The notes: a model not told the origin generated them from the letters alone. A stretch of DNA of 64,000 nucleotides from Candidatus Iainarchaeum sp. (GCA_028710695.1 JAQTTP010000003.1:8865-72864), one strand, 5' to 3'. Shown: positions 41,942 to 64,000, counted from the stretch's first letter. A program made the numbers and translations.

Positions 41942-43366
41942 ATGCTAAACTTTGATCTGCAGGGGAAAAAAGGGTTTACTCTTTTTACTGCTCTTGTGGG
42001 TTTTATAGTAATTGGAATTACTGTACTTGTTCTTCAGCATCTTGATAATAGCGAATCAAACTATAATCAAATTTTTATTACAATGCAGGCACAAACTGAG
42101 ATCAACACCTTGAAAGATATTTTGCGTTTAGACAGCTATAGTTATGTGAGCCTGCTTCTTGTGGAAAGAATTGCGGCTTATTTTAATGGCCAAACATTTG
42201 TTTTATCCCAAAAACCATGGGGGGATCAAACTAATACTTTTGAAAAGGAATACTTCTTGGGAACCAGTACTTCAACCCCCGTGACGAACTTTTTAGTTAA
42301 TGCTTATGCTACTCAAATGGAGAACTTTTCTGGGGATTACAAAACAAAATATAAATTCTTAATTTATGACCCAACTCAGCTTCAAATACCAAACTCTGGA
42401 ATTGACTTGTTTGGGCCCAATTTTAAACCAAATACTGCTTTAGGAAAAACATCACAAGTTTTATCAAATTCTGTAAAAAATTATGCTGCCCAGCAAACAA
42501 CCCAACTAAAGTTATTGGATGTTGTTGGTTGTGATGATTTTGGAACTGAATTATATGCTGGAGAATGTGAAAATGGGACTTTTTACATACCATTAGATCT
42601 ATCTAAACTTAATGATCCTCAAGAGTACGAAAATATTTTGAGAATTCTGATATATAGGTACTTAGATAAAGCAAGTCTAGATGATGCTATTTTGCCAAAG
42701 AACAAGATTAAGCTTTATGTTCCTATTAGATTGTTTGGTGCAATGTCAAAATTTATGGAAACAATAGATAGTTTTAATACAAATGCTTATGAACAAGCCG
42801 GGCTCAAAGATTTGTCCTTTGGATCTTGTGAGCCAAGCTGTTGGCCAAGTTCTATCGACGTTAAAATGGCTTGTTACCAAACTGGCTTAGATGAACAAAC
42901 TTGTACCGAAGATACTACTGTTGATGGCCTGGATTTTGTTAATGCCTTACCTCCGCATTTTGTACAATTGGATTTAGAGAATACTACAAAATTATTTTGT
43001 GATGATTACCTCAAAAAAGAGTTTGAAGATTTTGCTATTGAAACTCCTGGCCTAGAATTTGGAGATTGTGAAGTAAAGTTAAATATGGGCGACACAGAAT
43101 TCTATAAAGCTGCAAACTATAATACTGGGCAGCCACTTTTTACTGCCCCCTGTAATTATCTTGATTCTGTTGAAATTCAATTCTCAATAGTGGATATAAA
43201 TCCTCTATTCATGTTTGATACTCCGATAACCTATGTTTTTGATATCGTTTTAGATAATAGAGGTTACACAAGTACTCTTGGCTTGCCGAAAAGTGTTACT
43301 TGTTCATATACTCAGAGCTCTGGTGTAATGCTTACTTTAGATAGTGAACAAGTCGATTACCAATAA
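41942..43366 (+). CDS. Cys-rich secreted protein with class III (type IV prepilin-like) signal peptide
   Basis: The N-terminus MLNFDLQGKKG-FTLFTALVGFIVIGITVLVL has a charged leader, a Gly, then a hydrophobic helix. The mature part has 10 Cys. Confidence 0.55.
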   Translation: MLNFDLQGKKGFTLFTALVGFIVIGITVLVLQHLDNSESNYNQIFITMQAQTEINTLKDILRLDSYSYVSLLLVERIAAYFNGQTFVLSQKPWGDQTNTFEKEYFLGTSTSTPVTNFLVNAYATQMENFSGDYKTKYKFLIYDPTQLQIPNSGIDLFGPNFKPNTALGKTSQVLSNSVKNYAAQQTTQLKLLDVVGCDDFGTELYAGECENGTFYIPLDLSKLNDPQEYENILRILIYRYLDKASLDDAILPKNKIKLYVPIRLFGAMSKFMETIDSFNTNAYEQAGLKDLSFGSCEPSCWPSSIDVKMACYQTGLDEQTCTEDTTVDGLDFVNALPPHFVQLDLENTTKLFCDDYLKKEFEDFAIETPGLEFGDCEVKLNMGDTEFYKAANYNTGQPLFTAPCNYLDSVEIQFSIVDINPLFMFDTPITYVFDIVLDNRGYTSTLGLPKSVTCSYTQSSGVMLTLDSEQVDYQ

Positions 43367-43481
43367 CTCTTAAAAAATAGGGCAAATTTTGGCTAAACAA
43401 TTGTATATGTTTTTAAAGTTAATATATATAAATATTTATGTAGTCTATTTAACAACGACTTGAAATATATGTGTGATGTCT

Positions 43482-46400
43482 ATGGGTCTGAAAGATTTCT
43501 ATTTTGGTTTAGAAGAAAAATACTACAATTTCTTAGATTGGTTGGATTCAAAAGGAATCCCTTTGTACAAAGTTGATGACTGGCTTCATAATAAAGGAAT
43601 TGCCGGCTTCCCTGTTTTTATGATATTTTGTTTGATAATCCTTGCTTTAATTGTTTGGGGTATACTTGCCTTGACAATTGGCTTCGGACCTGATCAAGCA
43701 ACAGTTTACCTAACCTTTAAGGATACTACAAGAAATATGCTTGTTGAAGGGTTAGAAGTAAAAGTATTGCTTGATAGCGAGACAACCTTTACAACAGATA
43801 AGAGTGGAAAACTTTCATTTGTTGCTAATGTGGGTAGTGTAATACCTTTGGCAATATCAGACCCAAATTACAAGTTGTTAGAAGAAACAGTAAGTATTGA
43901 AGAAAATGGACAGAGTTCTATAATTGAGTTAGAATACAAAGGCGGACTACTATCAAAAACTATTTTCTTTTATGATGGAAAGGATGAGACTGGACAGACA
44001 CTATTTAGCGGAAACGTTGATGCAATAGTTACTTGTACTGATAATAGCAGTTATATGTCTGAAGTAAGCACTTCAGAAGGAAAAGCAACATTGAGTGATA
44101 TTTCAATAGATTGTGGAGAATTAGTAGTTACATTATCCTCTCCTGCATATGCTTCAGAGACATTCTCTTTAGATGAGGCAACACCATCAATGACTGTTGA
44201 AGAAGAAGATGGCGGATTTGGAAATATTAGTATAACAGTTTTAGATGCGGACGGAAGCCCGAAAGCAAATGCTTCAGTTCAGGCAATGAATTCTGAATAT
44301 AATTTAAAGGCAGCACAAGGAATTACTCAAGCTTCTGGTGTTGTTGCTTTAGAAGTTCCTTCAGATGCAACTTATTATTTGGTTGTTAGTGATTTAGAAG
44401 GAATTTATGCTACAGAGTATACAAATTCACCAATATTTTCAGAGAATAGTTTTTCTCAGAGTGTTGGAAAGAATGAAACTATTAGCGCAATAATTAAATT
44501 AAACAAGAAAACTGTTGGATCAATAAAATTGACAATAAAAGACACTTTAGGAAATTTGGTTCCACAAGCAGTAATTAAGGTTTACAAAAATGGAAGTAAT
44601 ATTGAAGAAGTAACTGGACAACTTTCAGAGCCAGGGACTTTCCAGTTTTATGCTGGAGAAAATGTTCCATATAGATTTGTAATAGATGCAGAAAACTTCA
44701 TGCTTGAAGAGGTAGATAACTTGTCTGCTTCAGAAAGTGCATACACCGTAACTTTGAAACCAATAAAACAGAGTCCGGAACTAGTTGTGTTAGTAAATGG
44801 AACAGACAATGAGCCAGTTTACAATGCTTCAGTTCAGTTATTCACTGTTGACAAGCAAGCTTTGTTGCTAACAAAAACAACAGATGTTGCTGGCGGAGTG
44901 AGTTTTAATAACTTGAGCGCAGGAAAAAGCTACTATGTAAAAGTAGTAAAAGGAAACTTTTCAGCAGACTCATCACCAATAACTTTGAGTGGAAAAGTAA
45001 ATAATATTTTGACAGTAAAATTGAACATCGGAAACGGAGACTTGACAATAAAGGCAGTAAATAAGGATAATTTGCCAGTTCAAGGCGCAGAGGTAACAAT
45101 TTATGATATTGCCACCGATGCTAAACTAAACCAAGCTCCTTTGTTTACTGATGAAACAGGAAGCGTATACTATACCTTGAGAGCTGATAGAGTAGTATAT
45201 GTAAAAATTGTAAAAGATAGTTCAGTATTCTATAGTTTGCCAATACAGGCAGATGTAGATGCTGCAAAAGAAGTAATGGGATATGTTTATGATAAGCCAG
45301 CAAATTTAGGAATGGATTTAATATCTATTTACGACTTACAGGGAAGTAAGATAGAATCAAGCCCTAAACCAATAGTTCAGGGAACTGATTATATTGGGTA
45401 TTTCTTGTTAAGAGTTCCTGAAGGATTGGCATATGACGAATTAGGAATTTTCTTTAAAGCAGACGATGCGTTGATTTTAGAAAAATCACAGATGTACATA
45501 AAATCATTAGAGTTCTTCAATGCATCAGTAAAGATGGGAACTACTTATAGTCCACCAACTGGATTTGCAGATGATATGCAGAACTTAACTTCAAAAGAAG
45601 GGTTGTGGGCAATGGCATCAACAACAAAAGTACTGCCAGGAAATTATTTAGTTAAAGTTGTTTTTAACACAACAAGTGCAGAAAAAAGTTTGTTGTCTTT
45701 GAATTATAGAAGTTGGTTAAAGAACGGATCAACTTATACAAGAGAACCATTTGATTCCGAATTAGGAACTTCCTCAGGCGGAGACAAAGATGGATTATAC
45801 GCAAAGCTAAATCAAACTTTGTTTAAGATGGGAAATGCAGTTTGTTCTGGAACAATATGTTCTGAAGTTGTTGTTTCAGGAGAAGGCGCAAAACAAAAAG
45901 TTGTTGATAATGTATTTGCAAAGTTGAATGGAATATATAATATAGATATAATAATGAAAAGTATTTCAGTAAAGGAATACAACAACGTTACTTTGAATAT
46001 AGAAAGTGTTAACAAAGGAATTGACTTTAAAGTAAAAAGCTTTACAATTGGTGGAAAGAGTGTAAGCCCACAGAATAAGGGAACATCAGTTTCTACTGGC
46101 GGAGTTACAATTAATTCATCTTTCAATGCTTCAACAACTTTAGAGTTTATGGCAATGAAAGAAGGACAGAATATTGTAAAAATATCTCTAGTTGGAGCAG
46201 ATGGAACTGTAATATATGAGAGAACATTAACTGTTGATGTTCAACCATCACAGGAATTATTATTAGATATAGTTCCAAGCACAATTGTTCCATATGTTCA
46301 AAACAGTTTGAGTGTTAAAGCAGTAAGTGTTGATGTAAACGAGCCAATAGTTGGTGCTTTAGCTAATTTATTTATTGAGGGCAAATTGATAAGTTCAGTA

Positions 46401-49400
46401 AAAACTGATTATGATGGATTTGCATTATTTGATGTTCCTGCTTTAGGAGTTGGAACAAAGGTAATGTTACAAATAATGGCATCAGGATACAAGAAAGTTG
46501 AGCAAGAAATAATTGTTTCAGAAAATATTTTGATGACTGATGTTCCGGAATTGACAATAACTATTGATAGATCAATAGGGGATATTGTTGAAGGATCAGT
46601 AACAATGACTAATTTGACTCCTTTGAAATTGAAAATTGTGAAATTATATGTTGTTGAAGGGGCATTTAAAGAGTTCTTGAACTTTGATTTCAAGAAAAAA
46701 TACGATGGAATGTTTTTAGTAAACGACACAAACACAATGAATATTGAATACAAAGCAGAATTAACAAAAGGAAAGAATTTACTAGAGCCAAAAGAATTTG
46801 AAACAAAGATGATGATAGAATTAGAAGCAAGCGGCTTGGGATATAAATGGAATATGTCCTTGCCTGTAAAATTCTATATTAAATTGGCTGGTGGAATAGA
46901 TTCAACAGATTGTTTAAAATTGAAACCATTAACTGATACAGAAGACGAAATTTGGCAGATCTTACTGTCTGAAGAAAAAGAAAAAACATCAATGCAATTT
47001 GAAATAGAGAATAGCTGTAAAGCAAATTCACAAGATGTATACCTATACAATCCAACTATTGAATTAGTGTGGAAAGGAAAGGTACTTGGAGAATTCTACG
47101 CAGATAGTGTTAAATTAGGAAAGAAAGAAATTGCATTATCTAGTGAAACATCTGGAAATGTTTTAGCACCTGGTACAACAGAAATTGGATTTGACTTTTT
47201 ATCACTTGGAGATGTTGTTAGCGGTAAATCAGATGTAACTTTGAGAATAAAAGCACAGAACCCAACAAACAACGGATTACAAGAAGTAAAAGGCGAAGCT
47301 AAAGCACAAGTTGTAATTTCTATTTTGAAAAAATGTTTACAAGTAGTATCTGCTCAAGGAAGTGGAATGCAAGTTAACGGAGTTCCGGTTGTAATATTAA
47401 GTGCAAACAACTACGGAATGATGGGCTTCAGTGGAGCAGGATACGGAATGAGCTCAATGATGGGTTATAACTCATTAGGTGCAAGCTCTATGCTTGGTGG
47501 AAATAATGTATATAATACACCATACTTTACTCAGACTGGTGCAGGTTTAGCTAATAGGCCTGGCGCAGTTGCTCAGAATAATTGGGCAATGAATTCTGCG
47601 AATCCAAACATGGCTTACCAATACAACCAATATGATCCTTATAGTAGTGGAATGTATGGTGGTCAAGGTGGCTATGGAAATACAATGGGCGGATACGGTG
47701 GAAACATGGGCGGTTATGGTGCAGGAATGGGCTACCAAAACCAAATGTATGGCGGAGCTTCATTACCATCAATTGCAGCTTTGCAAATAAGAAATACTTG
47801 TGAGTTCCCAGTTCAGATTGAGTTGCAAGCTATGCCTCAATTATGGATTGAAAGCCCAAGTTTTAATTTAACATCAGGTCAAACTGGATCTTTTAAGATA
47901 AGTGCAACTTCAATGGTTGGACAGTACGCAGTATATGTTGCTGCTGGTGTTAACAACGGATTAATGTTGCAAATAAGCCAGATCCCAGTAATTGTAAGAG
48001 ATTTTATGAACGAGACAAGCAATGATTGTTTTGTAATTGAAGGTGGAAAGAAAATTGATTTCACTGGTTCAGGAATAACAAGTGGATCAATAAAACAAGT
48101 AAGAATGTGGAATAAGTGTTATGCTAGAGGCCTAACAATGGACAAAGCAGAACCAGTAACATATAACAATTTAGAGGCTATTGATCAAATAACTGGCCAA
48201 GGAAAAGGAACATTCTATGCAACTGCACAAGTTGTTGAATCTCCTGAGCCAACAACATATGAAGGAATAATGGCAGAAAAATTCTTGGTGTTGTTTACAA
48301 AGAATTTAGAAATAATGCAAGCAAGTCAAGAGCTTTCAAAAAGCGACGGAACCTTGAGTGGCGGTGTTAGTGCATTTAGTGATTTAAGAAAAGCGGGCGG
48401 CCAAACATATGAGCTTGTGAATATGCCTGCATTATTGACATTCAAATATAATTTATCATATGTTCCAAGATCATCCTCAATCTTAGTTTATATTTCAGAT
48501 AAGATGAATATCTTGGGTGCATTAGCAAAATTGTCTGGTGCATACTTGGAAGGAAATAAAGATTGTGGACCTAATGACTGGGATAATTATATACATGCAG
48601 TTCCAGAACAACTTAAAGTTGCGGAAGATGTAAAGAATAACATGTTCTCAAACAACGAATATACTTCTGAAGAAATTGTTGTAATGGAAGTAAGCAAAGA
48701 TTGTTTTGGATCTATGGATTCAATAAAATACTTTGGAAACTTAGAGTCTGATGAAGACACAGCAGATGGCGGAGCAAAGATACATGTTACAATAATACCT
48801 GACGATAAAGGTCAGAATATTGTTGTGAAATTTAGGAAGCCAACTGTATTAGCTAAAGGTGCACACCCAGTTAGTGTTAACTTCCAGGGGAAGGTAATAA
48901 AGACTGGAGCTAATAAAACAAAAACATACAACTTTACTTTGACTGCAACTCTTTATGGAGATGACAAGGCAGACAAGAGTAGCGGAACAATAACAACTGA
49001 TATGATTAAAGACAAAGAAAAAGAAGGTGCTGGCGGAGAAGGCGGAACAACAGTATCTGAGGCAGAGACAAAGTGTTATTCTCTGTACGGAAATGTTGGT
49101 TTGTACCTGAACAATAATGTTTACTCTGACATAAAGTATGAATGGGCACCAAGCAAGATTAACGACGGATTCTGTAAAGTAAAAGACGATCCTTACAAAG
49201 GTGAAGGATACTTCTGTGATCAATACCAATTTACTGCAGCTTTGAGTAAATCCTATAATGATATAAAAACGTTATTCGGAGATTCAAAGACAGTGAAAGA
49301 AATTATAACTAAAGCAGTAAATAGCAGCAAAACCGATAAAGGATTTGTAAAGTCAGGAACCTCTTTGCTAGAATATATTGGATACCTTGGCGGATATGAC

Positions 49401-51194: not shown

Positions 51195-51215
51195 AGGTAG
51201 TCGATATTTTTAGGT

Positions 51216-51242
51216 AAAGAACCATTTTTTGGTTCTTTTTTT
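51216..51242 (+). terminator. Hairpin plus T-run after giant gene 1
   Basis: AAAGAACCA-TTTTT-TGGTTCTTT (9-bp stem) running into a T-tract. Confidence 0.6.
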
Positions 51243-54200: not shown

Positions 54201-57200
54201 AAGGATAAAGAAACAGGCGAATTAGTAACTGGTGCAAAAATATATGTGAAAGATAATTCAGGATTGGTTCTATTTATGGGGGCTACTGACGCAGAAGGAA
54301 AAGCAGTAATTGATTTGCCATCTCAAAAACCAAATGTTTTATTGAAATTATTAGTGTACAAGCCAAAGTATAAATCATTTGAATTTGAATACAAAACAAG
54401 TTCAGAATTTATAACTTTGAGCAAAGAAAAAATTGATATGAAAATAGATGCGAAATTAGGATTTGCAAAAGAGAGTTTGTTCTTGACAAACACAAGTGAA
54501 GTTCCTGTAAAGATTGAAGATATCTTCTTGCAAGGAAATTTTGCAGAAAAATTGTCATTAGCTCAAATAAATAAATACTTTGAAGTATCACATAAAGGAA
54601 AAATGGTTGATAAATCTTTGAAGTATGATTTAGCAATAAACCTTGCTTTGACAGAGTTAGGTCAGAACATAACTACAAATGAAGAGTATGATTCAATATT
54701 AGTAATTAAATTAAGTGCAATGGGCGGAAAATGGGAAATGAAAGTTCCAATGCACTTGCTTCTATCTGTTGGTGGAAGTGTTGATGACAGAACTTGTTTG
54801 GCTGCAGATTTAATTAATATGAAATTAGTTTCAACTGAAAATAAACAAGACAAGCAAACACTAACAATAACAAATGGCTGTACAATAAACGGAAAGCCAG
54901 TTTCATTGAATAATTTAGAAGCAAAATTAGAATGGAAAACAAATGCTTTGGGATCAATACAAATGACCAAAGAAGAATATTCAAATAATGTAATGCAAGC
55001 TTACTTTACAAGTTTGATTAACAAGTTGACTCCTAGTAGCGAGAATACTTTTGTAGTGAATATAGAACCAAAATCAAAAGTTTCTGGAAAAGGAGAAGCA
55101 ATATTACATTTAAGAGCTTTGAACAATACTGAAAGTGGAGTTGAATATATAATATTAGATATTCCATTGGAAGTTGATGTTGTGAATTATGGTGAATGTA
55201 TCCAGTTTGAGTTGCCAAATGCAGAAACAGATGTTGTTGCAACTTTAAGAGATGCAGACACAAGCTTTAAGGTAACAAACACATGTGCTGAAAAAATAGA
55301 AGTAACATTTAGCTTGAAGCCAGAGGATACTGTGCAGATAAGCCCAGACAAGATTTGGGTTAAAGCTAATGAAACAAAAGAAATTAAAGTAAAGCCGACA
55401 AATTCAGCAATTGGTGTTTATACTGTTGATGTATTTGGAAGAACTGAAGGCCACACAAATGAAGGAATAAGAGTAGGAATAAATGCTTTGAGGGTTCTAT
55501 TGCAACCTTTGACAACAGATTGTTTCTACTTAGAGAACTATGAGTTTGATATGGCAAGGAATCCAGAAGAAACAAAGTGGACAACTTTAGTAAATAAATG
55601 TGTAAACAAGCAAGCAGTTGTTCAATATGATTTGAAAATAGAAGTAGATGTTGATGGCTGGGATTATGTTTTAGGTATATTAGGTGGTGCAGCCGGTGGA
55701 GCAGTAGGTAATAAACTTGGCGGCATGATCGGTGAGCTTGGTGGTGGATTACTTGGCGGTTTAGGCGCAGGTAACTTCGGAATGGTAATGCTTGAAACTA
55801 AAGATGATTGTGAATTGGAATGTCTCTATAACTATTCTGGTGAAGAATATACTACCTGTGTGAATGTTTGTGCAAGTATGGGTCTTCCTGAAACAGAAGC
55901 CCCAAGTGGTACAACAGGTACTGGAAGTGGTGCTGGTGCAAGTGGAATTGGTGGAGATGTAAGTGGTACTCCTCCTGCAAATGGTACGGGTACAGGAACA
56001 GGTACTGGAGATAAACCGGCGGCAGATAAAAAGAAGTTTGACAAAGGAAGTTTTAAAGAGGCAATTACTGGTGGACTTGGTTCTGCAGCAGGATCTGCTG
56101 GAGTAAGTTACCTAATTGGAAGTCTAACTGGATTAGATCCTGAGACAAAGAAAGATACTACTAAATGGTCTGCGATTTTAGGTGGTGTTGGTGGTCTTGC
56201 GGGCAGCTGGATTGGAGGCCCAATGGGTATGGTTCTGGGTGGTTTAGGTGGTGCAGTAGGTAACATTATTGGATTAGCATCTAATGATGGAGACACTATA
56301 GAAACAATAACAAGAACAATCCCAACAATGGTTGAAGATTATATGACTATGAACGATGTTCTCCTGACTGAGGCGGCACAAAAGAGCATGCTGGGTGGAA
56401 ATATGGCTGCTTTAAAAGCAAAATCAATTGCAGATAAAGCAGGAACTGTGGCAGCAGAAATAATTAATGCTACGTCAGCTCTCTCTGGAAACGTAGTTTT
56501 TGAATCAGGTGGAACAATAGAAATAGAACTATCTAAAAAAATTGAAAGAACATTTAATAATCAAAATAAACTTGTAAAAGGAATTGGAGAGCAAGCAATT
56601 GAAATGTATCCAGTTGGATTTACAAAATCAAAAACAGGAATGGACAATAAAGTTGAAAGCTTGACTTTGTTATTGAATTATAATAGAAAGAATCTGAAGA
56701 GCTTAGTTGCAAGTCAGGATTATAGTACATCCGGATGGACAACACAGCCTAACCAGTATATGTCACAGATGGGCGGGTATGGTCAGTCAGGCCAATATGG
56801 AATGCAGAATGGCGGATACAATGGCTATGGTTATGGTTCAAGTATGGGCTATGGCGGTTATGGAACTGGAATGGGTTATAGCGGAATGGACTCATACGGA
56901 ATGCCATCTGCGTTTAGTACTATAGGACTACAAGCGGACTCAGATACAATATCCTATGAGGATGCTCAAGAAGACCAGAAAGTAGAAGAAATGGATAGAG
57001 AAAAAGTTGAAACATCTCTAGAGCCAGGAAATGTTGAAATAATAAATGAATATTCTCCGATAAGCATGTTATTTACTGATGTTGCTGATCAGCAAAAGAA
57101 ATATAACTTGCCAATAGAGAATTGTTTCTTGGCAAATGGCAAATCTGGAGCAACAGGTCCAGAAGCAAAACCAAAAGTTGCATTTACTTGGAGATGGAAT

Positions 57201-59105
57201 GATGTTGTAGATTACCAAGTAGGCTCTGGTGGATATATGTGTAGTGACGGAAACATATATTGTGATGCTACACAGTTTACAATAGAAGTAATAAACAGAT
57301 TAAAAATTGCAAATGGTTTATTGAAATCATTTAGTCCAGATTGTGAATATAGCCAAGCAATTTATAATGACACATTTGATGTTACTGATCAATATGTTGG
57401 TGTAAGTAGTGTTGTTGTTGAAAGACTTGGGAATTCATCAAGTAACTACAATTTAGTTGTGAAAGTACAGAATAATTCCTTGAATAAGCTTTCAGGAAAT
57501 TATATTGTAAAGGTAGTAGATACACAGCAAACAAAAGACCTTTACACATTTAATGGACAATTTGATTTGAGCAAGAAATCTAATGCTTCAGATGATGAAT
57601 TGGTAATAACAAATGAAGTTGAATTGTACTATAGCACATTCAAAGTTGAAGTTCAATTTAACTCTGTAAAGAACGAAGATACTACAGAAAAATTGCCATA
57701 CAATTATGTAATACCTTATAATGGCGAGCAATTTGCTTATGACTCAACAGCACTAATGGGCTTAGAAAAAAGCACAGATAAAATAATAGAGTGGGGCAAT
57801 TGTGCTAAGAAAGAAGGCGCAGCAACAACAATTTGGAATAAGTTGAACTTTGAAGCTTACCTAATGAAGGATGGATTTACAGATGACTTCTTGGCAGACT
57901 TCAAAGAATATGCTGTTAACCAGAAATTCTTAGATGCTCCTGGAGATGCAAAGAAAATAATAAACAACTTGCTTCCAAACAACCTAAAGTTCTTGCCAAA
58001 AGAATCTGCTTTGAATGCTATGGGCTATTCATTGCCGCAAGCAGGATTGTATAAAGTAGAAATTGTTGTGAAATATGGCGATACTCATATGGGCTGGGAT
58101 GTATTTGACAGCGATGGAAAAATAATTGAAGATGTAAACTCCATTGCAGTTTATTTAGAGCCAGTAAAGTTTAGTGATAATCCACTATACTATTTGCCAT
58201 TGGATGCAACTGTTGGTGTTGAGAATTATGAACTTAAGAGAATTGGATATGGTCTTGACTTTGGCGGAGACACTTTATGGTTCAACAAAGAAAGTGAAGA
58301 TAATCCAACTTTGATACCAACATTGGTTTCTAAGTCTAATCCACAAGTTCATGTTGAAACTGTTTCAAAGCAAGATATGGAAACTCTGAACACTTATAAA
58401 GGATTAGTTCTAAAGGTTGTTCCAACAGGAACAGTTGGAGACACAGTAGAAAGAACAATATATTATTATCCATCAGTTCCAGCACCAGTAGCAATGTATA
58501 TTAGTAAAGAATCAGATGGCCCAGCATATGGATCTTATTTGATTTCAAGAGCAAACAAGGGACCTGTAAACTCAGGAAACTCCTTGATGAACTGGTATGG
58601 ATTCTGTAACAAAGGAACTGAGATGTATGCTCCAGAAACAGATACAGAAAAGAAATATGCTTGTAAAGGATTCTCTGGCGAAGATATAATTGATCTTCAA
58701 GGATATCCTGATAAAGCAGGAACAAAGATAGACATACCTTTGGGAGAATTTAAAGCAAATGCTTATGGAATGTTCTTTGATGAGGATAGCTTGTTGAGAA
58801 CTCCAGAAACAAGCAAGGTATTCTTCAGAGGAATTATTTACCTAACACCGAACGAAACATCAACTTTCAAGAAGATAACTGCAAGTGATGAAATGAAGAT
58901 ATTATATCCTGAAGGAGCAAGCGATGAATTCACACTTGAGCCTTTGAATAAGGATGTATCTACAGTTCAAAGCATTTACGACTTGGTTGGAGATGGGTAT
59001 ATGTGTGTAACTAATCCACAAGGCGGTGCAGGAGTAGAATTCTGGTGGAACCCTAAGGCTGTATTTGATACCTTGGAGTCCGGAGACGCGGAAGGTAGTA
59101 GTTAA
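51294..59105 (+). CDS. Giant N-terminally anchored surface protein, paralog 2 (2603 aa)
   Basis: Uninterrupted 7.8-kb ORF. Starts MGLREFYYKMEEKYY followed by a TM helix. Collinear similarity to paralog 1. Contains internal glycine-zipper segments and a GY-rich segment. Confidence 0.85.
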   Translation: MGLREFYYKMEEKYYAFLDSLDKKGIPVYSVVDPIDKVVPSFVLFLVLFGIIIIAIIYALIVAFGLPMTNQVTVTFSDKMGTPIPNALVSFSLADSNEEMTTDAFGTIKFEAEPGKEIMFSLKYNDKTYVKSVKIEDDVLQYKVSIDQLNLSKQKLSFSLYTTDNTPLQAVDIYFSCSNSSAEAPDNMMGYSTNDVDVDVDGDCGYLMVSTASEFYKPTDDTQIDNGEAIYLDPVQSSGDSAIVVNVTDTTGAIVTDFEATLSIGIYDGYYSSGYSNETSQVQFANLAAGLYKITVSKSGYTNAVGSVTLEETDVKTLNLQMTKLEGGTQVSIKVMNLASKALQGAEVCFYDINGESYTKIGCATTNESGLATYTLEKDKSHKFTVTKEGYSSIVYTDLAANSDTIEVKLSSVDPSKYRLMKVKVIDSEGKPVENAKVNVYDDKGNIAPYEPGTTDLNGMAYLSFIEDGKYKLFAYKLNYSGFSDLADFDNQDNLATIDYTVSMYIPKGIIAVSVVDSYGSNVPNAVVKFFDASWNEITALGGKHTDGYGQLGVEYRADKKLFFVVQKESYENYISKSEYIIPDTTTEKKVVMEKKKLKPEPKVEFVNLTTEDGTDVSILGAGNKYIAKFKITLPEKEQPFETMSAYFVSGDKDIVEKDGWHIEKVVYSGLGTLSKGRSYTGNYDNDIKGINQVGNEIEQGMPFEDSFKWIGINWDLEKMDLISGIFFVDVYLKVKDTTKIGENLPINFKLSTENKDEKFTDPLNEVPEFPDASKTKLYNESKNKFFTVGTAQQTCDELFCFEINVEDNDEAIIQDMVPDTPYVSELGKNYTLRFKLINNNIKPVTNYRVIIKNEQENTFFTTSNIKGVSGNISPVLNSEVAKQENNYQIVYNEDVYQELQKNDLVIGEINFEPRKIGSGSLKFIVIQDKQEYYSKEFLINVNAYKEMTVTLAPEVLPSYIPLKVDLLAKDKETGELVTGAKIYVKDNSGLVLFMGATDAEGKAVIDLPSQKPNVLLKLLVYKPKYKSFEFEYKTSSEFITLSKEKIDMKIDAKLGFAKESLFLTNTSEVPVKIEDIFLQGNFAEKLSLAQINKYFEVSHKGKMVDKSLKYDLAINLALTELGQNITTNEEYDSILVIKLSAMGGKWEMKVPMHLLLSVGGSVDDRTCLAADLINMKLVSTENKQDKQTLTITNGCTINGKPVSLNNLEAKLEWKTNALGSIQMTKEEYSNNVMQAYFTSLINKLTPSSENTFVVNIEPKSKVSGKGEAILHLRALNNTESGVEYIILDIPLEVDVVNYGECIQFELPNAETDVVATLRDADTSFKVTNTCAEKIEVTFSLKPEDTVQISPDKIWVKANETKEIKVKPTNSAIGVYTVDVFGRTEGHTNEGIRVGINALRVLLQPLTTDCFYLENYEFDMARNPEETKWTTLVNKCVNKQAVVQYDLKIEVDVDGWDYVLGILGGAAGGAVGNKLGGMIGELGGGLLGGLGAGNFGMVMLETKDDCELECLYNYSGEEYTTCVNVCASMGLPETEAPSGTTGTGSGAGASGIGGDVSGTPPANGTGTGTGTGDKPAADKKKFDKGSFKEAITGGLGSAAGSAGVSYLIGSLTGLDPETKKDTTKWSAILGGVGGLAGSWIGGPMGMVLGGLGGAVGNIIGLASNDGDTIETITRTIPTMVEDYMTMNDVLLTEAAQKSMLGGNMAALKAKSIADKAGTVAAEIINATSALSGNVVFESGGTIEIELSKKIERTFNNQNKLVKGIGEQAIEMYPVGFTKSKTGMDNKVESLTLLLNYNRKNLKSLVASQDYSTSGWTTQPNQYMSQMGGYGQSGQYGMQNGGYNGYGYGSSMGYGGYGTGMGYSGMDSYGMPSAFSTIGLQADSDTISYEDAQEDQKVEEMDREKVETSLEPGNVEIINEYSPISMLFTDVADQQKKYNLPIENCFLANGKSGATGPEAKPKVAFTWRWNDVVDYQVGSGGYMCSDGNIYCDATQFTIEVINRLKIANGLLKSFSPDCEYSQAIYNDTFDVTDQYVGVSSVVVERLGNSSSNYNLVVKVQNNSLNKLSGNYIVKVVDTQQTKDLYTFNGQFDLSKKSNASDDELVITNEVELYYSTFKVEVQFNSVKNEDTTEKLPYNYVIPYNGEQFAYDSTALMGLEKSTDKIIEWGNCAKKEGAATTIWNKLNFEAYLMKDGFTDDFLADFKEYAVNQKFLDAPGDAKKIINNLLPNNLKFLPKESALNAMGYSLPQAGLYKVEIVVKYGDTHMGWDVFDSDGKIIEDVNSIAVYLEPVKFSDNPLYYLPLDATVGVENYELKRIGYGLDFGGDTLWFNKESEDNPTLIPTLVSKSNPQVHVETVSKQDMETLNTYKGLVLKVVPTGTVGDTVERTIYYYPSVPAPVAMYISKESDGPAYGSYLISRANKGPVNSGNSLMNWYGFCNKGTEMYAPETDTEKKYACKGFSGEDIIDLQGYPDKAGTKIDIPLGEFKANAYGMFFDEDSLLRTPETSKVFFRGIIYLTPNETSTFKKITASDEMKILYPEGASDEFTLEPLNKDVSTVQSIYDLVGDGYMCVTNPQGGAGVEFWWNPKAVFDTLESGDAEGSS

Positions 59106-59218
59106 TAACTACTCTTTCTTTCTTTTTTATTTTTTTGTGATTTAAATGCCAAGTTTGAATTTATGCTCAAAATCGCAAAAATGTCAAACAGAGACATTAA
59201 AATCAAAAGGTGATTTAA

Positions 59219-59848
59219 ATGCAAACCACATTAGAAGATTTTTTTGAGATTGCATCCAAGCCTACTTGGAGATCACTTCTTCTGGATATTATTAAAAAAA
59301 ATCAAATAGATCTTTGGAAAATTGATGTTTCTTTGATTGCTGAAAAATATCTTAAAGAAATAGAATTCTTAAAAGTAAGTAATTTTGAAATACCTTTGAA
59401 TGGGGTTTTGATTTGTTCTATTTTGCTAAAATATAAAGCAAATAGGCTTGTTTCTTTCTTTGAGCTTGCAAAAGAGATTGAGGAAGAACTTAAAGCAGAA
59501 GAAAAACTGGAAAACTTTGAGGAAATCTCTCAAGAAGAAACTAAGCTTGATAGTTTTGTAGAATCTTTAAAAGGTCTGACAGGCCCTGAAAAGAAAAAGT
59601 ATCCTAAAAAGATACATTATGTGGAGTTAAAAAGGCCACAAAAAGACTTCAAAACGATCTTGCAATACATAGAGGAAGAGGCAAGGAAAATCGAAGGAAA
59701 AACAACGTTTTTTGACTTTAAGCAGAGATTCTCAGATACAAGTCCTGCAGAAGTGTTTTACTCTTTGTTGTTTATACATAAAGAAGAGAAAATCGCCCTT
59801 GTACAGAACGATCAATATGGGGATTTTACTATAAAAGCAGGTAAATAG
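59219..59848 (+). CDS. scpA: Segregation and condensation protein A (kleisin)
   Basis: WRSLLLDIIKKNQIDLWKIDVSLIAEKYL and VLICSILLKYKANRL, with a C-terminal wHTH-like VFYSLLFIHKEEKIALVQNDQYGDFTI. Confidence 0.75.
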   Translation: MQTTLEDFFEIASKPTWRSLLLDIIKKNQIDLWKIDVSLIAEKYLKEIEFLKVSNFEIPLNGVLICSILLKYKANRLVSFFELAKEIEEELKAEEKLENFEEISQEETKLDSFVESLKGLTGPEKKKYPKKIHYVELKRPQKDFKTILQYIEEEARKIEGKTTFFDFKQRFSDTSPAEVFYSLLFIHKEEKIALVQNDQYGDFTIKAGK

Positions 59849-59925
59849 TTCGATTAGATAGAAGGATATGTATATATTCTTTTTCTCTAGAAAGAATATT
59901 ATTGTATTTTTAAGGAGATGTTAAC

Positions 59926-60081
59926 ATGGTAATGAATCCTATAGCAGAAAATAGATATTTAAAGGGAAAATGGGTTTGTATGAACTGTAACGCTACTATG
60001 AGGGGCAGCAAGCAGCCAATAAAATGTAGAAAATGCGGTTTAACCCAAATCAGACAGAAGAAAAAACAAAGAAAGAAGTAG
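59926..60081 (+). CDS. rpl40e: 50S ribosomal protein L40e (51 aa; below the ORF-track size cut-off)
   Basis: MVMNPIAENRYLKGKWVCMNCNATMRGSKQPIKCRKCGLTQIRQKKKQRKK: a CxxC...CxxC zinc ribbon with a basic tail. SD-like GGAG upstream. Confidence 0.8.
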   Translation: MVMNPIAENRYLKGKWVCMNCNATMRGSKQPIKCRKCGLTQIRQKKKQRKK

Positions 60082-60143
60082 AGTTACTATTTTTTCCGAA
60101 GAATTGTCGAGCTTTGGCGAGACTTTTCTTTGGGCAACTTACA

Positions 60144-60164
60144 CTTTCTTTTAATAAAAGAAAG
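60144..60164. terminator. Pyrimidine-arm/purine-arm palindrome between rpl40e and tRNA-Arg
   Basis: CTTTCTTTT-AAT-AAAAGAAAG, 6 nt before the tRNA 5' end. Confidence 0.45.
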
Positions 60165-60170
60165 GGCAGT

Positions 60171-60244
60171 GACCTTGTAGCCTAATCGGATAAGGCACCA
60201 GCCTTCTAAGCTGGGGATTGTGGGTTCGAGTCCCACCGAGGTCG
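60171..60244 (+). tRNA. tRNA-Arg (anticodon UCU)
   Basis: GACCTTG-TA-GCCT-AATCGGATA-AGGC-A-CCAGC-CTTCTAA-GCTGG-GGATT-GTGGG-TTCGAGT-CCCAC-CGAGGTC-G. The acceptor has 7 bp, including one G-U. Confidence 0.85.
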
Positions 60245-60249
60245 TTCCA

Positions 60250-60274
60250 AGCTTTTCTTTGATAAAGAAAAGCT
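60250..60274. terminator. Pyrimidine-arm/purine-arm palindrome after tRNA-Arg
   Basis: AGCTTTTCTTT-GAT-AAAGAAAAGCT (11-bp stem), 6 nt after the tRNA. Confidence 0.5.
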
Positions 60275-60339
60275 CCGGTCCATCAAAAGAAACCCCTGCG
60301 GGCGCAAATTGGCTTTTTGCATTTTTTCTAAAAATACCG

Positions 60340-60353
60340 GAGTCCCACCGAGG
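60340..60353 (+). repeat. Direct repeat of the tRNA-Arg 3' end (att-like)
   Basis: GAGTCCCACCGAGG is identical to tRNA positions 60228-60241, 112 nt upstream. Confidence 0.6.
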
Positions 60354-60355
60354 AT

Positions 60356-61081
60356 CTAAAGAATTTGTTCTATAATTGAACCCATTCTTTTGATTAACTC
60401 TTCTTTTATTTTCTGAGTGGTGGGATAATTATTTATTATTTCTTCAAGTAGAGCTAGAATCCGTTTTTCTCCAAAATATTCATAATGATTGTATAAAATG
60501 CACATATAATCTTCTCTAAATGCTCTAAATATGTTTGCTGGGTCAGACCAATCAATCTGTTTTCTTTTTGCAAGAGAAAAATCAATAAAATAAACTTTTC
60601 CATCTTTGTATGTTGCATTCTGGAAATGCGGGTGTCCATGTTCTACGCCCAAAGCATGCATTTTTCCTAATTCTCTAAAAAAAGCAGGGAATATGTGTGG
60701 GTTAGATGGGTCTTCTAAGACACTTTGTGTAATACTTTTGCCCATATCCATAAAGGCCATAGGGTGGTGCCCATTTTCTGGAACCTCAAATCTAAAAGGC
60801 TCTTCAACATTTACCCCAGAATTATGTAAATATTTAACAATATCAAGCTCGTGTTTTGAAACATTTCGAAGGTAAACTTTTTTTCCGCTTTTTGTTATAG
60901 CAACACGAGTACATTTTGCAAGTAGTTTCATATGCCGATCTCTTAATTCTGGGTTACCGTGTCTAACTGCTAGCATTGCTGATGCTTTTATAGCTGTATC
61001 TGTGGAATAAATAGATATTTCTTTTGGTTCTAGTCTTGTTACTTCTGGCCTTTCATAGGGCCGTTTTATTGGCTTTCTCAT
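60356..61081 (-). CDS. Kinase-fold protein, paralog of 24976-25674 with a degenerate catalytic loop
   Basis: LGVEHGHPHFQNATY replaces the HxDLHxxN loop, while YFIDFSLA is retained. The N-terminus IKRPYERPEV parallels VKKPYTKPSV of the paralog. Confidence 0.5.
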   Translation of the reverse strand: MRKPIKRPYERPEVTRLEPKEISIYSTDTAIKASAMLAVRHGNPELRDRHMKLLAKCTRVAITKSGKKVYLRNVSKHELDIVKYLHNSGVNVEEPFRFEVPENGHHPMAFMDMGKSITQSVLEDPSNPHIFPAFFRELGKMHALGVEHGHPHFQNATYKDGKVYFIDFSLAKRKQIDWSDPANIFRAFREDYMCILYNHYEYFGEKRILALLEEIINNYPTTQKIKEELIKRMGSIIEQIL

Positions 61082-61243
61082 AATATATAATCAGTTAAGA
61101 AAAATATATACTTTGTGGCTTTTGTGGTCACAGAAACTCTAATTATTTTACACTTGTTTTAGAACCTTGGTTTCTGGGGGCCAAAAGATAAGCTTTTTAA
61201 TACCTATAATTATATATATACAGCGATTATCTCTGGTGTTTTT

Positions 61244-64000
61244 ATGGGCTTAAGGGACTTTTATTTTGGTTTAGAAGATAAATACTATAAAATGATCGAT
61301 AAACTTGATACTATTTTTCCTGCACATGCGATTGTGGATAGAATAGATAAAGTAATGCCTTCAATGATCCTGTTCTTTATTTTATTTGTAGTTATAATTG
61401 TTCTAATAATTTGGGCTGTAATTCCGTCCTATGCTCAAATAAATGTTTCTTTCTTTAATGATGGCTTGAGTTTGAAGGAAAAAATCCCTTTTAGTATGTA
61501 TATTGGGGATGAAAACTACTCCTTTGTTTCTGACGGAGGGTCAGCAATAGTAAAAATACCAAAAAGTGATCTGTATAGAATAAAAGTTGATACTTCTAAG
61601 TATTCAATAGACAAAGATTACTCTTTTAGTGATGAAATAAAAGTTTTATTAGATAAAAAGAAAAAAAATATTCCAATACAAATTTATTTTAAATCTGGAT
61701 ATTCTGATGTAGAATCCGCAAGCGCAATATTTGATTGTGATAATATTTCAATACCGGATTCTGAAGCAAGTAAAGAAACAAATAATGGATATATTGAGAT
61801 AACTGTGCCAGAAGATTGTGGAATTTTGAATATTTCTGCAAGTGCAGAAGGTTATAATTCTAAGAATGATGTTTGTGATTCAACTTCTTGTGTAATTAAT
61901 TTTGAAAGTGCTACAAGCGTTAGTGATAATGGAAAAACAAATATTCCGACTGCAAATATAGTTGTAAAAATTGCAGATAATTTGGGCTCAAAAGATGGAC
62001 AGGTAACTATTTATGATTCTTCTGATTTGATAAACCCTGTTGAAACAGGATATTCTTTAAACGGGTATTATAACTCTAAAGCTTTGGCTGTTGGGGGCTA
62101 TAAAGTTGCTGTTAATGTTGGAACTTATTTGCCACAAACAAAAACAATAGTTTTGACTGAAGCAGGAATGAATGTTGATTTCATGGTTATGAAAAACACA
62201 TTAGGAAATGTATTATTAAAAGTTGATGAAGAAACAGAATTTTCATATAAGTTGAAAGATTTAAATAATAATATATTGGATTCTGGAAATAGTGACAAAG
62301 AAGTTGCATTCCTTCCTGTATTTGAGTACGGAAAATACCTGATTGATTTGACTCCAGATAGTAATGAATTTGGAGTAATCTCAAATGAGCAAGTTGAATT
62401 TAAAGAAGGCACTTCAGAAATTACCTTGGATTTGAAAGAGATAACTTCTTTTAACGCTGTTTTAGTTAAATTGCATGTAATTGATGAATCAGAATCTCCA
62501 ATACAAGGCGCAAAAGCATTTGTGCAAGATTTGTTTAGCGGATTTGAAGTGTTTAGTTATAACTTCCCAGAAACTGATGAAAATGGAGACACTCAACTTC
62601 CCATTACTGAAGAAGGGGCTTACTCTTTTAGAGTTTACAAAGGTTATTCAGAAGGAATGAGCGAGCAAGTAACAATTACTTTTGAGCCAGGAACTGAAAT
62701 GCCAGAAGAAGAGTTGGATGTTGTAATTTATTTGGGAAATGGAAGTTTTAATATAACTGTTTTGGATGAATTAGATTATGTTGTGCCATTTGCACAAATT
62801 GATTTTTATACAAAAGGACTGACAAAAAAATCAGGAACAAAATTAACTGATAATGCTGGAAAATTATTATTTTCATTAAAAGCAGGAACAGAAAAATTCT
62901 TTGTGGCATCTAAAGAAGGCTATATGCCATTCTATAGTGAAGCAAGGTTTTTAACTCCTGCAAATATTTGGGATATAAATGCAAATTTAGAACCACAAAA
63001 ACTAAAAGAGGATGATGAAAAAGCAAGAGTTGAATACTTGGGTGTATTTGATGCTCTTGGCGGAGAACCAACTAATTTCGAAGTTGATAAAGCAGTATAT
63101 TTGGGTTATGATATCCACCTTTACACTGATGTGGATGAAATGAACTTCGAATATACTACTGGAAAAGAAACAACAACTGTAGAACAAGATTCTTTATTTA
63201 TTTTTGATAGTAGTTCTTCATCACAAGTGGATTCAATGTATGAAGATCTGGAAAAAACAATTTACACTGAGGATAAAGGAAAAATATTAACTGCAAAATG
63301 GACTACTGGATTGGATTCTGCAAAAGTGGAAAAAGGAATTTATAGGATCTATGTGAAAGTAATGGTTAGAAATGATAGCTCAGTATCTTTGTACGAACCA
63401 TTGAATATAAAATGGAAATTATATTTGGATGAAAAGTTAAATTCAAGCGAAGAAAAAGAATATTTCTTAGGAAGTAGTTTGGATTGTAGTGATATGTTTT
63501 GTGCAAAAACATCTTTATTGGACATTGAAAACCAAATCTATGTTGAAAATATTGGAAATGTAAATAAAAATGAACAAAAATATCCTTTAGTAATTGGAAA
63601 GAAGTATAAAACTGAATTCACCTTAATGAACGGAATAACTGCAAGCGATGGAGAAATTGAAAATGGATACTTGAAAGCACACACAGCAACAAGTTCAGAT
63701 ACAAGTTTCATGGCTGTTGAAAATGATGTTGATAAATATAATTTCTATCAATTTTCAAATATATCTTTGAGTGGACCAAACAGCGAGAGCCAATATTATG
63801 GCGCCGCAAAAACAATTTTAGTAGATAAATATAATTTCACAAAATTCTTTGCAAATAAAACAATTTCTGGAAGCTTTAATTTAATTCCAACTTATGATAA
63901 TGGGAATTACATTAACTTTTGGGTTATAGATTCTGATAAACAAGTTCCAGTAAGGGGGGCTCCAGCATTTAATTATTGGTTTGTGCCTGATGCACCACAC
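61244..64000 (+). CDS. Giant surface protein, paralog 3 (partial; open to the window edge, at least 919 aa)
   Basis: I translated the frame by hand from ATG 61244 and found no stop through nt 64000 (2757 nt, exactly 919 codons). Starts MGLRDFYFGLEDKYY followed by a TM helix. It is absent from the ORF track, presumably because no stop is reached. Confidence 0.8.
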   Translation, partial: MGLRDFYFGLEDKYYKMIDKLDTIFPAHAIVDRIDKVMPSMILFFILFVVIIVLIIWAVIPSYAQINVSFFNDGLSLKEKIPFSMYIGDENYSFVSDGGSAIVKIPKSDLYRIKVDTSKYSIDKDYSFSDEIKVLLDKKKKNIPIQIYFKSGYSDVESASAIFDCDNISIPDSEASKETNNGYIEITVPEDCGILNISASAEGYNSKNDVCDSTSCVINFESATSVSDNGKTNIPTANIVVKIADNLGSKDGQVTIYDSSDLINPVETGYSLNGYYNSKALAVGGYKVAVNVGTYLPQTKTIVLTEAGMNVDFMVMKNTLGNVLLKVDEETEFSYKLKDLNNNILDSGNSDKEVAFLPVFEYGKYLIDLTPDSNEFGVISNEQVEFKEGTSEITLDLKEITSFNAVLVKLHVIDESESPIQGAKAFVQDLFSGFEVFSYNFPETDENGDTQLPITEEGAYSFRVYKGYSEGMSEQVTITFEPGTEMPEEELDVVIYLGNGSFNITVLDELDYVVPFAQIDFYTKGLTKKSGTKLTDNAGKLLFSLKAGTEKFFVASKEGYMPFYSEARFLTPANIWDINANLEPQKLKEDDEKARVEYLGVFDALGGEPTNFEVDKAVYLGYDIHLYTDVDEMNFEYTTGKETTTVEQDSLFIFDSSSSSQVDSMYEDLEKTIYTEDKGKILTAKWTTGLDSAKVEKGIYRIYVKVMVRNDSSVSLYEPLNIKWKLYLDEKLNSSEEKEYFLGSSLDCSDMFCAKTSLLDIENQIYVENIGNVNKNEQKYPLVIGKKYKTEFTLMNGITASDGEIENGYLKAHTATSSDTSFMAVENDVDKYNFYQFSNISLSGPNSESQYYGAAKTILVDKYNFTKFFANKTISGSFNLIPTYDNGNYINFWVIDSDKQVPVRGAPAFNYWFVPDAPH

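Follow-up and report, generated by a model that had tools for sequence, protein, structure and literature searches.

A class III-signal protein and three giant paralogs form an ordered locus across the archaeal phylum Iainarchaeota

The four genes and their products

We analyzed a stretch of 64,000 nucleotides (hereafter the window, with positions counted from its first letter) from Candidatus Iainarchaeum sp. (GCA_028710695.1 JAQTTP010000003.1:8865-72864), a DPANN archaeon of the phylum Iainarchaeota, and focused on a cluster of four genes in its last 22 kb. Judged by their sequences and those of their relatives, these genes belong to a phylum-wide ordered set of one protein with a class III signal peptide and three ancient giant paralogs. 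The first open reading frame, ORF1 (41942-43366, + strand), encodes a pilin-like protein of 474 amino acids (aa) with a class III signal and, as its ORF map and family alignment indicate, a Cys-rich, fast-evolving C-terminal half. Three giants follow on the same strand: G1 (43482-51194; 2570 aa), read from an MGL start at 43482 with an alternative GTG start at 43473; G2 (51294-59105; 2603 aa); and G3 (61244-64000), of which the first 918 aa are present and whose frame is open at the window edge. An earlier reading of the window made without database searches (the sequence-only reading) had given the ORF1 coordinates, the two giant lengths and the third frame open from 61244, all of which were reproduced here. 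NCBI proteins from a 101-kb contig of a Candidatus Iainarchaeum metagenome-assembled genome (MAG) match G2 and ORF1 at 100% identity and are annotated as 'carboxypeptidase-like regulatory domain-containing protein' and 'hypothetical protein PHH82_02385', respectively.

All three giants begin with MGL(K/R)(D/E)FY..E(E/D)KYY followed by one strongly hydrophobic helix near residue 45, a common start that had been noted earlier and was confirmed here, the helix by Kyte-Doolittle hydropathy. BLASTP aligned G1 and G2 collinearly over residues 1-1300 at 22% identity (E 7e-37), G3 and G2 over residues 1-840 (E 2e-26), and G3 and G1 over the N-terminal 230 aa only (E 3e-11). This similarity is far beyond chance, and on sequence the three giants, already proposed to be paralogous, are true paralogs. 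Two of the collinear matches noted earlier also stand: KWNMSLPV/KWEMKVPM falls inside the G1-G2 alignment, and CDxxQF corresponds to family columns C66, D67 and Q70, which are invariant, and F71, which is nearly so.

The block ahead of the hydrophobic helix, which we call the N-module, comprises residues 1-44 of G1 (43482-43613), 1-42 of G2 (51294-51419; MGLREFYYKMEEKYYAFLDSLDKKGIPVYSVVDPIDKVVPSF) and 1-41 of G3 (61244-61366) in the module alignment, and is predicted to be cytoplasmic. It is followed by a predicted signal-anchor transmembrane (TM) helix (43614-43682 in G1, 51420-51488 in G2 and 61367-61426 in G3), placed by hydropathy and positive-inside count, with 19-residue Kyte-Doolittle means of 3.1-3.6; we found no C-terminal anchor. 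At 51% mean column identity over 43 sequences, versus 20% for the whole proteins, the N-module is the most conserved part of the family, with a consensus of 40-45 residues, ..LK..YY..EDKYY..LD..D..IPVYKVIDPIDK..PSF. We defined the giant A/B/C family by the module Y..xE[DE][KR][YW]Y..D..(I/V)D.ID..(V/I)PSF plus a TM helix, by a collinear body, and by a place in a locus of the order ORF1-A-B-C; G1-G3 have all of these, with the second half of the G1 module in a variant form (DDWLHNKGIAGFPVF) that its ortholog at locus L006 also has. Every one of 69 occurrences of the module in the examined loci is on a giant ORF with a TM helix directly after it, and a profile search with the module alone returned only contig-edge fragments of 54-94 aa and no new architectures. 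Neither Pfam nor NCBIfam nor the PDB sequences held a match to it. Lys and Arg were more numerous in the 15 residues on the N-side of the uncharged stretch than in the 15 on its C-side in 46 of 55 family members, which supports an N-in, C-out signal anchor and hence the type II topology that we predict for the giants.

The boundary between module and helix differs among members. The G1 module ends in ..HNKG|IAGFPVF (43590-43613, aa 37-44), a class III-like [KR]G|hydrophobic pattern some 40 residues into the protein that is also present in the L006 ortholog. Most family members have DK(V/I)(V/I)PSF or (Q/K/R)N-IPSFP at the (I/V)PSF boundary, without G, A or S at -1.

Beyond the helix, PF13620 (CarboxypepD_reg) scored above its gathering cut-off of 32.3 bits in all giants (G1 67.7, G2 76.5 and G3 38.3 bits; E 1e-18, 2e-21 and 2e-9), and Big_1 reached 49.1 bits in G2, above its cut-off of 34.9 bits. 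Matches to Big_1, bMG3 and MG4 were weaker than those to PF13620, and all Pfam matches fell within the first ~1,050 residues. With a purpose-built repeat hidden Markov model (HMM), G1 and G2 each showed six repeats (five between residues 70 and 600, the sixth around residue 1000) and the G3 fragment showed four. By Pfam and this HMM, a membrane-proximal array of five CarboxypepD_reg-like beta-sandwich repeats occupies aa 75-598 of G1 (43704-45275), five CarboxypepD_reg/Big_1-like repeats occupy aa 72-588 of G2 (51507-53057), and the G3 repeats span aa 162-573 (61727-62962). An isolated sixth repeat lies at aa 943-1016 of G1 (46308-46529; repeat HMM) and another, bMG3-like, at aa 965-1039 of G2 (54186-54410; Pfam and repeat HMM). 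The sequence-only reading was therefore right that such repeats occur in all the giants, but with only about six detectable in each the bulk of the protein is not that repeat, and a PF13620 match describes a domain, not a function. The C...DCG module that it had listed as common to the giants (aa 185-211 of G1, 177-204 of G2, 51822-51905, and 165-192 of G3, all within the repeat regions) was confirmed, both of its Cys (C177 and C204 in G2) being invariant in a 20-member family alignment.

G1 carries a low-complexity linker rich in G, Y, M, N and Q (aa 1284-1447, 47331-47822) that is found in only 22 of 114 family members, and G2 has a G/Y/M-rich low-complexity linker by composition (aa 1793-1894, 56670-56975). 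G2 also contains glycine-rich, moderately hydrophobic, glycine-zipper-like segments (aa 1455-1665, 55656-56288; GILGGAAGGAVGNKLGGMIGELGGGLLGGLGAG..., ILGGVGGLAGSWIGGPMGMVLGGLGGAVGNIIGLA), which are not conserved in the family and sit mid-protein in an otherwise extracellular giant, as predicted from its topology.

The distal end of G2 is a C-terminal head domain (aa 1925-2603, 57066-59102; alignment A3) whose alignment columns average 35% identity, some of them being invariant (C, W, D, G and P). Searched against a library of 1.84 billion proteins clustered at 50% identity, the head profile matched 825 representatives, 536 of them with E <= 1e-30. The match was always C-terminal, in proteins of 2,200-3,250 aa or fragments, and the named members are Iainarchaeum, Diapherotrites or unclassified 'archaeon'. 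Only about one-third of the full-length matches pass the strict N-module pattern; many of those that fail depart from it at just one position or two, and the remainder show either half a module or a plain anchor at the N-terminus. Types B and C scored 440-870 bits and type A in other genomes 30-90 bits, and G1 went undetected; by motif comparison, the C-terminal region of G1 (aa 1860-2570, 49059-51191) is a divergent counterpart of the head that keeps CDxxQF and the terminal Cys. A Cys within the last 15 residues is present in 110 of 114 full-length family members, G2 being among the four exceptions, and G1 ends in ...AYIPC (51177-51191); from its position, this Cys is likeliest to be a disulfide staple or an intermolecular link.

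The G2 head had no Pfam, NCBIfam or PDB match, all members of alignment A3 were without a Pfam match, and in an AlphaFold2 (AF2) model built on an 11-sequence alignment (mean predicted local distance difference test score, pLDDT, 57.9) Foldseek recognized one generic immunoglobulin-like (Ig-like) sandwich of ~120 residues only. The invariant D, W, C, G and P columns and the glycine-zipper-like hydrophobic segments of G2 could be read as marks of a contact-dependent effector or enzyme, which would deliver its conserved C-terminal domain, as a novel hydrolase, toxin or pore-former, to a partner cell in the way suggested for SPEARE proteins; a precedent exists in DPANN giants that carry protease and toxin domains (PMC6642349). 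We consider such a role very improbable, because Pfam, NCBIfam, PDB sequence and Foldseek searches gave no match to a catalytic, toxin or pore family, and the glycine-rich segments are missing from most family members (GxxxGxxxGxxxG in only 34/114).

ORF1 begins with MLNFDLQGKKGFTLFTALVGFIVIGITVLVL, which divides into the signal N-region MLNFDLQGKKG (41942-41974), a predicted prepilin-peptidase cut after G11 (KKG|FTLFTALV), and the hydrophobic H-domain FTLFTALVGFIVIGITVLVLQ (aa 12-32, 41975-42037), with the invariant motif FTLFTALV.F..I and a mean hydropathy of 2.63 over residues 13-31. The ORF1 family consists of eight clusters, plus tblastn matches in 10 loci; across the eight, G11 (-1) and the G11-FTLFTALV-F..I block are invariant, -2 is K or R in 8/8, and Q32 and E38 are conserved. 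Archaeal class III signals are recognized by G, A or S at -1, a charged residue at -2 that is critical for archaeal peptidases, and a cut site before the H-domain (PMC4371748). With G at -1, K/R at -2 and a site after residue 11 that precedes an H-domain of ~20 residues, the sequence supports placing ORF1 in this signal-peptide class, and by a simple rule it is the sole start-proximal class III-like signal in the window. Its mature part holds all of its Cys, exactly 10 (residues 197-454), and both the prepilin-like signal and the Cys content first reported hold in the translation and in the family alignment.

The likeness of ORF1 to type IV pilins and other PibD/FlaK substrates lies in the G at -1, the K/R at -2 and the invariant hydrophobic domain that the cut site precedes, as well as in a long helix predicted at the N-terminus (residues 9-81 of an AF2 model with mean pLDDT 66, followed by an alpha/beta domain). 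It differs from them in its length of 474 aa, far above that of typical pilins, in a Cys-rich globular part without a fold match, in having Thr rather than Glu at +5, and in the lack of adjoining assembly genes: no PilB/FlaI-type ATPase or PilC/FlaJ-type platform protein, by which a pilin locus would be known, was found in the window or in the flanks of loci L001 and L003. Assembly of ORF1 by machinery encoded elsewhere in the genome is possible; type IV pilus genes have been reported in Diapherotrites genomes (PMC8561730; PMC6642349). ORF1 had no Pfam, NCBIfam or PDB match and the members of alignment A4 were all without a Pfam match, and we do not regard ORF1 as established to be a true filament subunit. 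Compared with its nearest relatives, ORF1 is 72% identical over residues 1-100 and 25-37% over residues 300-474, and G1 is 80% identical to its L006 ortholog over residues 1-100 and 41-53% over residues 1700-2400, its fastest-evolving part. That the distal parts of both proteins diverge fastest fits exposed surfaces.

Distribution and gene order in related genomes

A word-indexed search with G2 found 16 relatives of 1,600-3,200 aa at 21-27% identity, and the 20-member family alignment is collinear end to end. Scanning one genome per GTDB species for the N-module yielded 64 loci, nearly all titled Iainarchaeum, Diapherotrites or uncultured archaeon, along with a few Micrarchaeota. The closest orthologs share 61.5% identity with G1 (L006) and 87% (L005) and 64% (L006) with G2. 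We found no relatives among IMG/VR viral contigs, and a viral origin was rejected. Three of the loci (L031, L041 and L042) come from a single study (AB_1215 bins), on contigs in MAGs that carry the names Chloroflexi, Falkowbacteria and Thaumarchaeota; mis-binning of Iainarchaeota contigs is the most likely cause.

Wherever contigs suffice, the gene order is an ORF1-like gene (400-580 aa) and then three giants in tandem. This ORF1-A-B-C order, shared by at least eight other genomes, was seen at L008, L013, L014, L017, L022, L023, L029 (complete genome CP064981.1), L001, L003 and L006, and ORF1 homologs stand directly upstream of the giants at L001, L003, L006, L008, L014, L017, L022, L023 and L025. 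The synteny and paralog counts in related genomes that had been suggested as a check thus came out in favor of the cluster, with the order and the three giants recurring across the phylum, and the apparatus-like unit first proposed is borne out insofar as the order is kept in many Iainarchaeota genomes. The description of the cluster as 'led by' a prepilin-signal protein holds for gene order but does not extend to a functional link between ORF1 and the giants, for which the evidence is synteny.

Orthology follows position. By summed BLAST scores in 56 genome comparisons, A giants matched A giants in 55/56, B matched B in 56/56 and C matched C in 40/56, the misses being due to two truncated sequences; therefore the triplication is ancient and the paralogs are not interchangeable. 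When the giants of the window were compared with seven other genomes, the best match of G1 was the A giant in 7/7 and that of G2 the B giant in 7/7, which on sequence places G1 in type A and G2 in type B. G3 matched the C giant best in 3/7, a result that is ambiguous because G3 is truncated at the window edge; it is probably a type C giant that four housekeeping genes have displaced. Giants B and C lie side by side at L013, L014, L022, L023 and L029, and housekeeping genes stand between them in this genome only.

These comparisons bear on whether the four proteins work together at all. The giants might instead be independent, partly redundant adhesins, with ORF1 an unrelated class III-signal protein (a pilin, or the substrate-binding protein of a pilus or bindosome encoded elsewhere) that is a mere neighbor. 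Such a view draws on the absence of assembly genes from the locus, on the finding that many archaeal class III-signal proteins are not pilins (PMC4371748), and on the four housekeeping genes that separate G3 from G2 in the window, so that strict co-transcription is not required. We think it quite unlikely, given that an ORF1-like gene is immediately upstream of giant A in every locus covering that region, in genomes that share only 22-30% protein identity, and that A, B and C are orthologous by position, which speaks for roles that are not redundant.

The same data speak to the integrity of the sequence. The only DNA repeat that the three giant genes share is a 63-nt block at the start codons, within the N-module, at 68-75% identity, and tandem repeats are trivial. 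We excluded repeat-driven misassembly on the basis of this near-absence of shared DNA repeats and of the same order in independent assemblies (L006 and others). More broadly, the chance that the locus is an artefact, whether misassembled or made up of decayed pseudogenes, is negligible: the sole pointer to it is that the giant genes are often fragmented in other MAGs, whereas here the ORFs run unbroken over 7.7 and 7.8 kb, and the order was assembled independently in L006 and many other contigs. At L029 (770-8803 in CP064981.1) the type A giant is split in two frames (770-7114 and 7298-8803), which reflects either a frameshift or sequencing error or a pseudogenized copy. Variation driven by a diversity-generating retroelement was also rejected, as there is no template/variable repeat pair (repeats of >=50 nt are only the start-codon block and one further pair at 71% identity), and no reverse transcriptase was found among the window ORFs scanned.

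Further genes recur beside the giants in related genomes. Four small multi-TM or hydrophobic proteins (~132, 107, 76 and 108 aa), without a family match, come directly after the last giant (L003:17471-19542), and at eight related loci (L003, L001, L013, L014, L022, L023, L029 and L057) they are followed by a coiled-coil protein and a ~504-aa protein of no family. In this genome the genes for the four small membrane proteins, possible additional components, probably lie just past nt 64000. A 478-aa counterpart of the ~504-aa protein is encoded at 30124-31560 (+), ~10 kb upstream of ORF1, with a weakly similar coiled-coil partner at 27782-28279; its homologs lie just downstream of the giants at L001, L003, L013, L014 and L057 (tblastn E 2e-35). 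We considered the ~504-aa protein as a secretion ATPase and rejected this, since it has no P-loop and no Pfam, NCBIfam or PDB match.

A candidate surface apparatus and its alternatives

The ways in which DPANN archaea touch and exploit other cells remain to be worked out, and whether Iainarchaeota need a host at all is unsettled. The locus takes up ~2% of a ~1 Mb genome, keeps its order across the phylum, and consists almost wholly of sequence without a family assignment, which makes it the obvious candidate for the main surface or contact structure of the phylum. We suggest that ORF1 and giants A, B and C may form a hetero-oligomeric, N-anchored surface fiber or contact apparatus, a reading to which we give about an even chance. 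Each giant would be inserted in the cytoplasmic membrane by its single N-terminal signal-anchor helix, with the 40-residue N-module ahead of the helix staying in the cytoplasm and the remaining ~2,500 residues outside the cell. In the outside part, Ig-like beta-sandwiches of the CarboxypepD_reg type and beta modules stapled by Cys would form a stalk next to the membrane; variable linkers and a family-specific head of ~700 residues, well conserved among B and C giants and divergent in A giants, would make up the rest. ORF1 would be exported via its class III signal. Cleavage after G11, probably by a prepilin peptidase whose gene lies elsewhere, would leave a hydrophobic N-terminal helix. Because the identity and gene order of the three paralogs and ORF1 are kept across the phylum, we suggest that they most likely act as one hetero-oligomeric surface fiber or coat, tens of nanometers long, which may mediate the contact of a very small cell with other cells, particles or surfaces. 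Extracellular-type domains (PF13620, Big_1, bMG3 and MG4) after a single helix, together with the invariant Cys pairs, are among the sequence features that favor this arrangement.

Several observations weigh against it. Shared ancestry, and not joint function, could account in part for a gene order that is conserved within one phylum, and the net charge of the N-module is slightly negative. The glycine-rich segments of G2 could, from their composition, be extra membrane-embedded stretches, which would complicate the topology. No recognizable binding or catalytic fold was found in the C-terminal head by Pfam, PDB or Foldseek searches, the last on a low-confidence AF2 model, and Foldseek comparison of the likewise low-confidence ORF1 model with the PDB gave nothing at E<=1e-3, and none of the top matches was a pilin. 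A pilus ATPase, platform protein or prepilin peptidase was not found adjoining the locus in the related contigs inspected; among the other window ORFs scanned, Pfam likewise found none of these and no S-layer family, in agreement with what the sequence-only reading had said of the window. Iainarchaeota have also been described as possibly free-living (PMC10936187; PMC6642349), so a host-contact role is not required, and host attachment, which had been put forward as plausible, is a possible but unsupported purpose of the giants.

The main rival explanation is a structural envelope coat, in which the giants would be an S-layer, or a canopy or sheath over one, built of Ig-like stalks with laterally interacting heads and serving protection and shape rather than attachment. 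The locus is universal in the phylum, with stable A, B and C orthologs rather than strain-variable copies, the conserved B/C head fits lattice contacts, and three genes occupy ~23 kb of a ~1 Mb genome. Archaeal S-layer proteins are typically made of Ig-like domains and sometimes have long stalks (bioRxiv 10.1101/2024.05.28.596244), and the giants resemble the Halobacteriota and Thermoproteota types in being multi-domain beta-sandwich proteins that are membrane-anchored, universal in their lineage and divergent in sequence. The giants differ in their N-terminal anchor, in a length two to three times greater and in forming a set of three paralogs, and the main text of the S-layer survey (bioRxiv 10.1101/2024.05.28.596244) does not list an N-terminal anchor with a conserved cytoplasmic module among archaeal modes of anchoring. 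That survey also predicts a separate S-layer protein of 1039 aa, A0A2G9N319, for Iainarchaeota, which weakens the coat reading, and the giants show no sequence similarity to any solved S-layer protein, their PDB profile searches giving generic Ig-like domains only. On balance we hold a coat to be unlikely.

The fiber or contact apparatus that we favor has partial counterparts among other giant surface proteins, of which the SPEARE giants and the Ig-rich proteins of archaeal type IV filament loci come nearest to it as functional analogs. The SPEARE proteins of Nanohaloarchaeota are giants of 3,300-8,500 aa, single-pass anchored and mostly extracytoplasmic, with a proposed function in cell contact; their defining domains are serine protease, laminin-G and a type III restriction endonuclease on the cytoplasmic side, and their anchor is usually C-terminal (PMC6642349). 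The two groups are alike as giant anchored DPANN proteins that occur in several copies, take up a few percent of the genome and carry adhesion-type beta domains. We found no sequence relationship between them, however: the SPEARE-defining domains are absent from G1-G3 (Pfam, NCBIfam), the only cytoplasmic part of the giants is a 40-residue module, and the three giant genes keep a fixed order together with a pilin-like gene.

Archaeal type IV filament loci also encode large, Ig-fold-rich, adhesin-like proteins, e.g., arCOG05616, for which a role in adhesion or recognition has been suggested (bioRxiv 10.64898/2026.04.22.720090). As in the locus described here, large Ig-rich surface proteins stand beside class III-signal genes and small membrane proteins, but those loci carry a secretion ATPase and a platform protein, and the giant locus and its relatives have neither. 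Proteins of the arCOG05616 type were compared by description, and the N-module and head of the giants match no Pfam or NCBIfam model. The archaeal secretion complex of Makarova et al. 2015 (arCOG01314 / arCOG02884) was rejected as a counterpart because its defining vWA, MoxR ATPase and DUF4350 domains are absent.

Giant bacterial adhesins have extended signal regions, such as ESPR in autotransporters, YSIRK, and KxYKxGKxW in serine-rich-repeat adhesins, and these signals are cleaved. Like them, the N-module is a conserved block before the hydrophobic core at the N-terminus of a very large surface protein, which suggests a dedicated targeting or pacing role; by this analogy, the module may serve as a cytoplasmic targeting or assembly handle. 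The analogy concerns the mode of working, not family membership, since there is no Pfam or NCBIfam match to those motifs and the helix of the giants is predicted to stay as an anchor.

Sequence and profile comparison of G2, ORF1 and alignments A1, A3 and A4 with the PDB found only Ig-like domains, such as NOMO2. The claim of a lineage-specific cluster with no characterized family beyond the repeats is thereby upheld, as the Pfam, NCBIfam and PDB searches gave only generic Ig-like repeats, and we found no published description of the giant A/B/C family in the literature searched. Giant DPANN surface proteins are already known as a kind, and this family is a new one among them, distinguished by an N-module and a C-terminal head of its own and by the fixed A/B/C triad that a pilin-like gene leads. 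Three unannotated protein families are defined here, namely the N-module, the C-terminal domain (at least 825 representative clusters) and the ORF1 family, which are now labeled only 'carboxypeptidase-like regulatory domain-containing' or 'hypothetical'. In a more far-reaching form, which we regard as possible but doubtful, ORF1, the giants and the four small membrane proteins of other genomes would make up an unrecognized archaeal surface organelle, a hetero-oligomeric fiber or grappling apparatus universal in Iainarchaeota and central to partner contact, in which the N-module would recruit subunits and possibly be processed at (I/V)PSF by a dedicated enzyme and the heads would have a new fold. 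The locus supplies concrete targets for metaproteomics, cryo-electron tomography labeling and multimer modeling.

Neighboring genes and other features of the window

The genes between G2 (giant B) and G3 (giant C) occupy 59219-61081 on mixed strands and are housekeeping genes outside the system. All four that had been named there were identified: scpA (59219-59848, +; ScpA, PF02616), rpl40e (59926-60081, +; L40e, NCBIfam PRK04136, E 3e-10, which is under the model cut-off), tRNA-Arg(TCT) (60170-60245, +; non-coding RNA scan) and a Bud32-like kinase-fold gene (60356-61081, -; family search). An Rfam scan found no other non-coding RNA above threshold besides tRNA-Arg(TCT).

The window has a GC content of ~32% and starts, by Pfam, with a cluster of the archaeal RNA polymerase B/A subunit, L30e, S12, S7, elongation factors EF-2 and EF-1a, and S10. 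This cluster and the identity of G2 to a Candidatus Iainarchaeum MAG protein bear out the small-genome archaeon that the sequence-only reading had supposed as the source. From 12 to 41 kb the window holds housekeeping genes, including methyltransferases, a wyosine radical-SAM enzyme, RtcB, RNase HII, Sua5, Trm1, LemA and an M48 peptidase, among others.

Immediately upstream of the giant cluster lies a tRNA-Ile (41338-41413, -) with the anticodon TAT (UAU) instead of the usual modified CAU. Between it and ORF1, an ORF of ~96 aa (41527-41817, +) reads like a winged-helix DNA-binding protein, without a Pfam match, and has a 43%-identical homolog ~2 kb downstream of the giant cluster at L023; going by this resemblance, it could be a local regulator. 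Farther upstream, a 679-aa fusion (18258-20297, -) combines a glutamine amidotransferase, an asparagine-synthase-like domain and a diphthamide synthase (Diphthami_syn_2) domain, an unusual single-polypeptide arrangement that, from its domains, possibly carries out glutamine-dependent diphthine amidation. Another protein (31591-32646, -) joins a CBS pair and a ribosome hibernation (S30AE/HPF) domain in one polypeptide.

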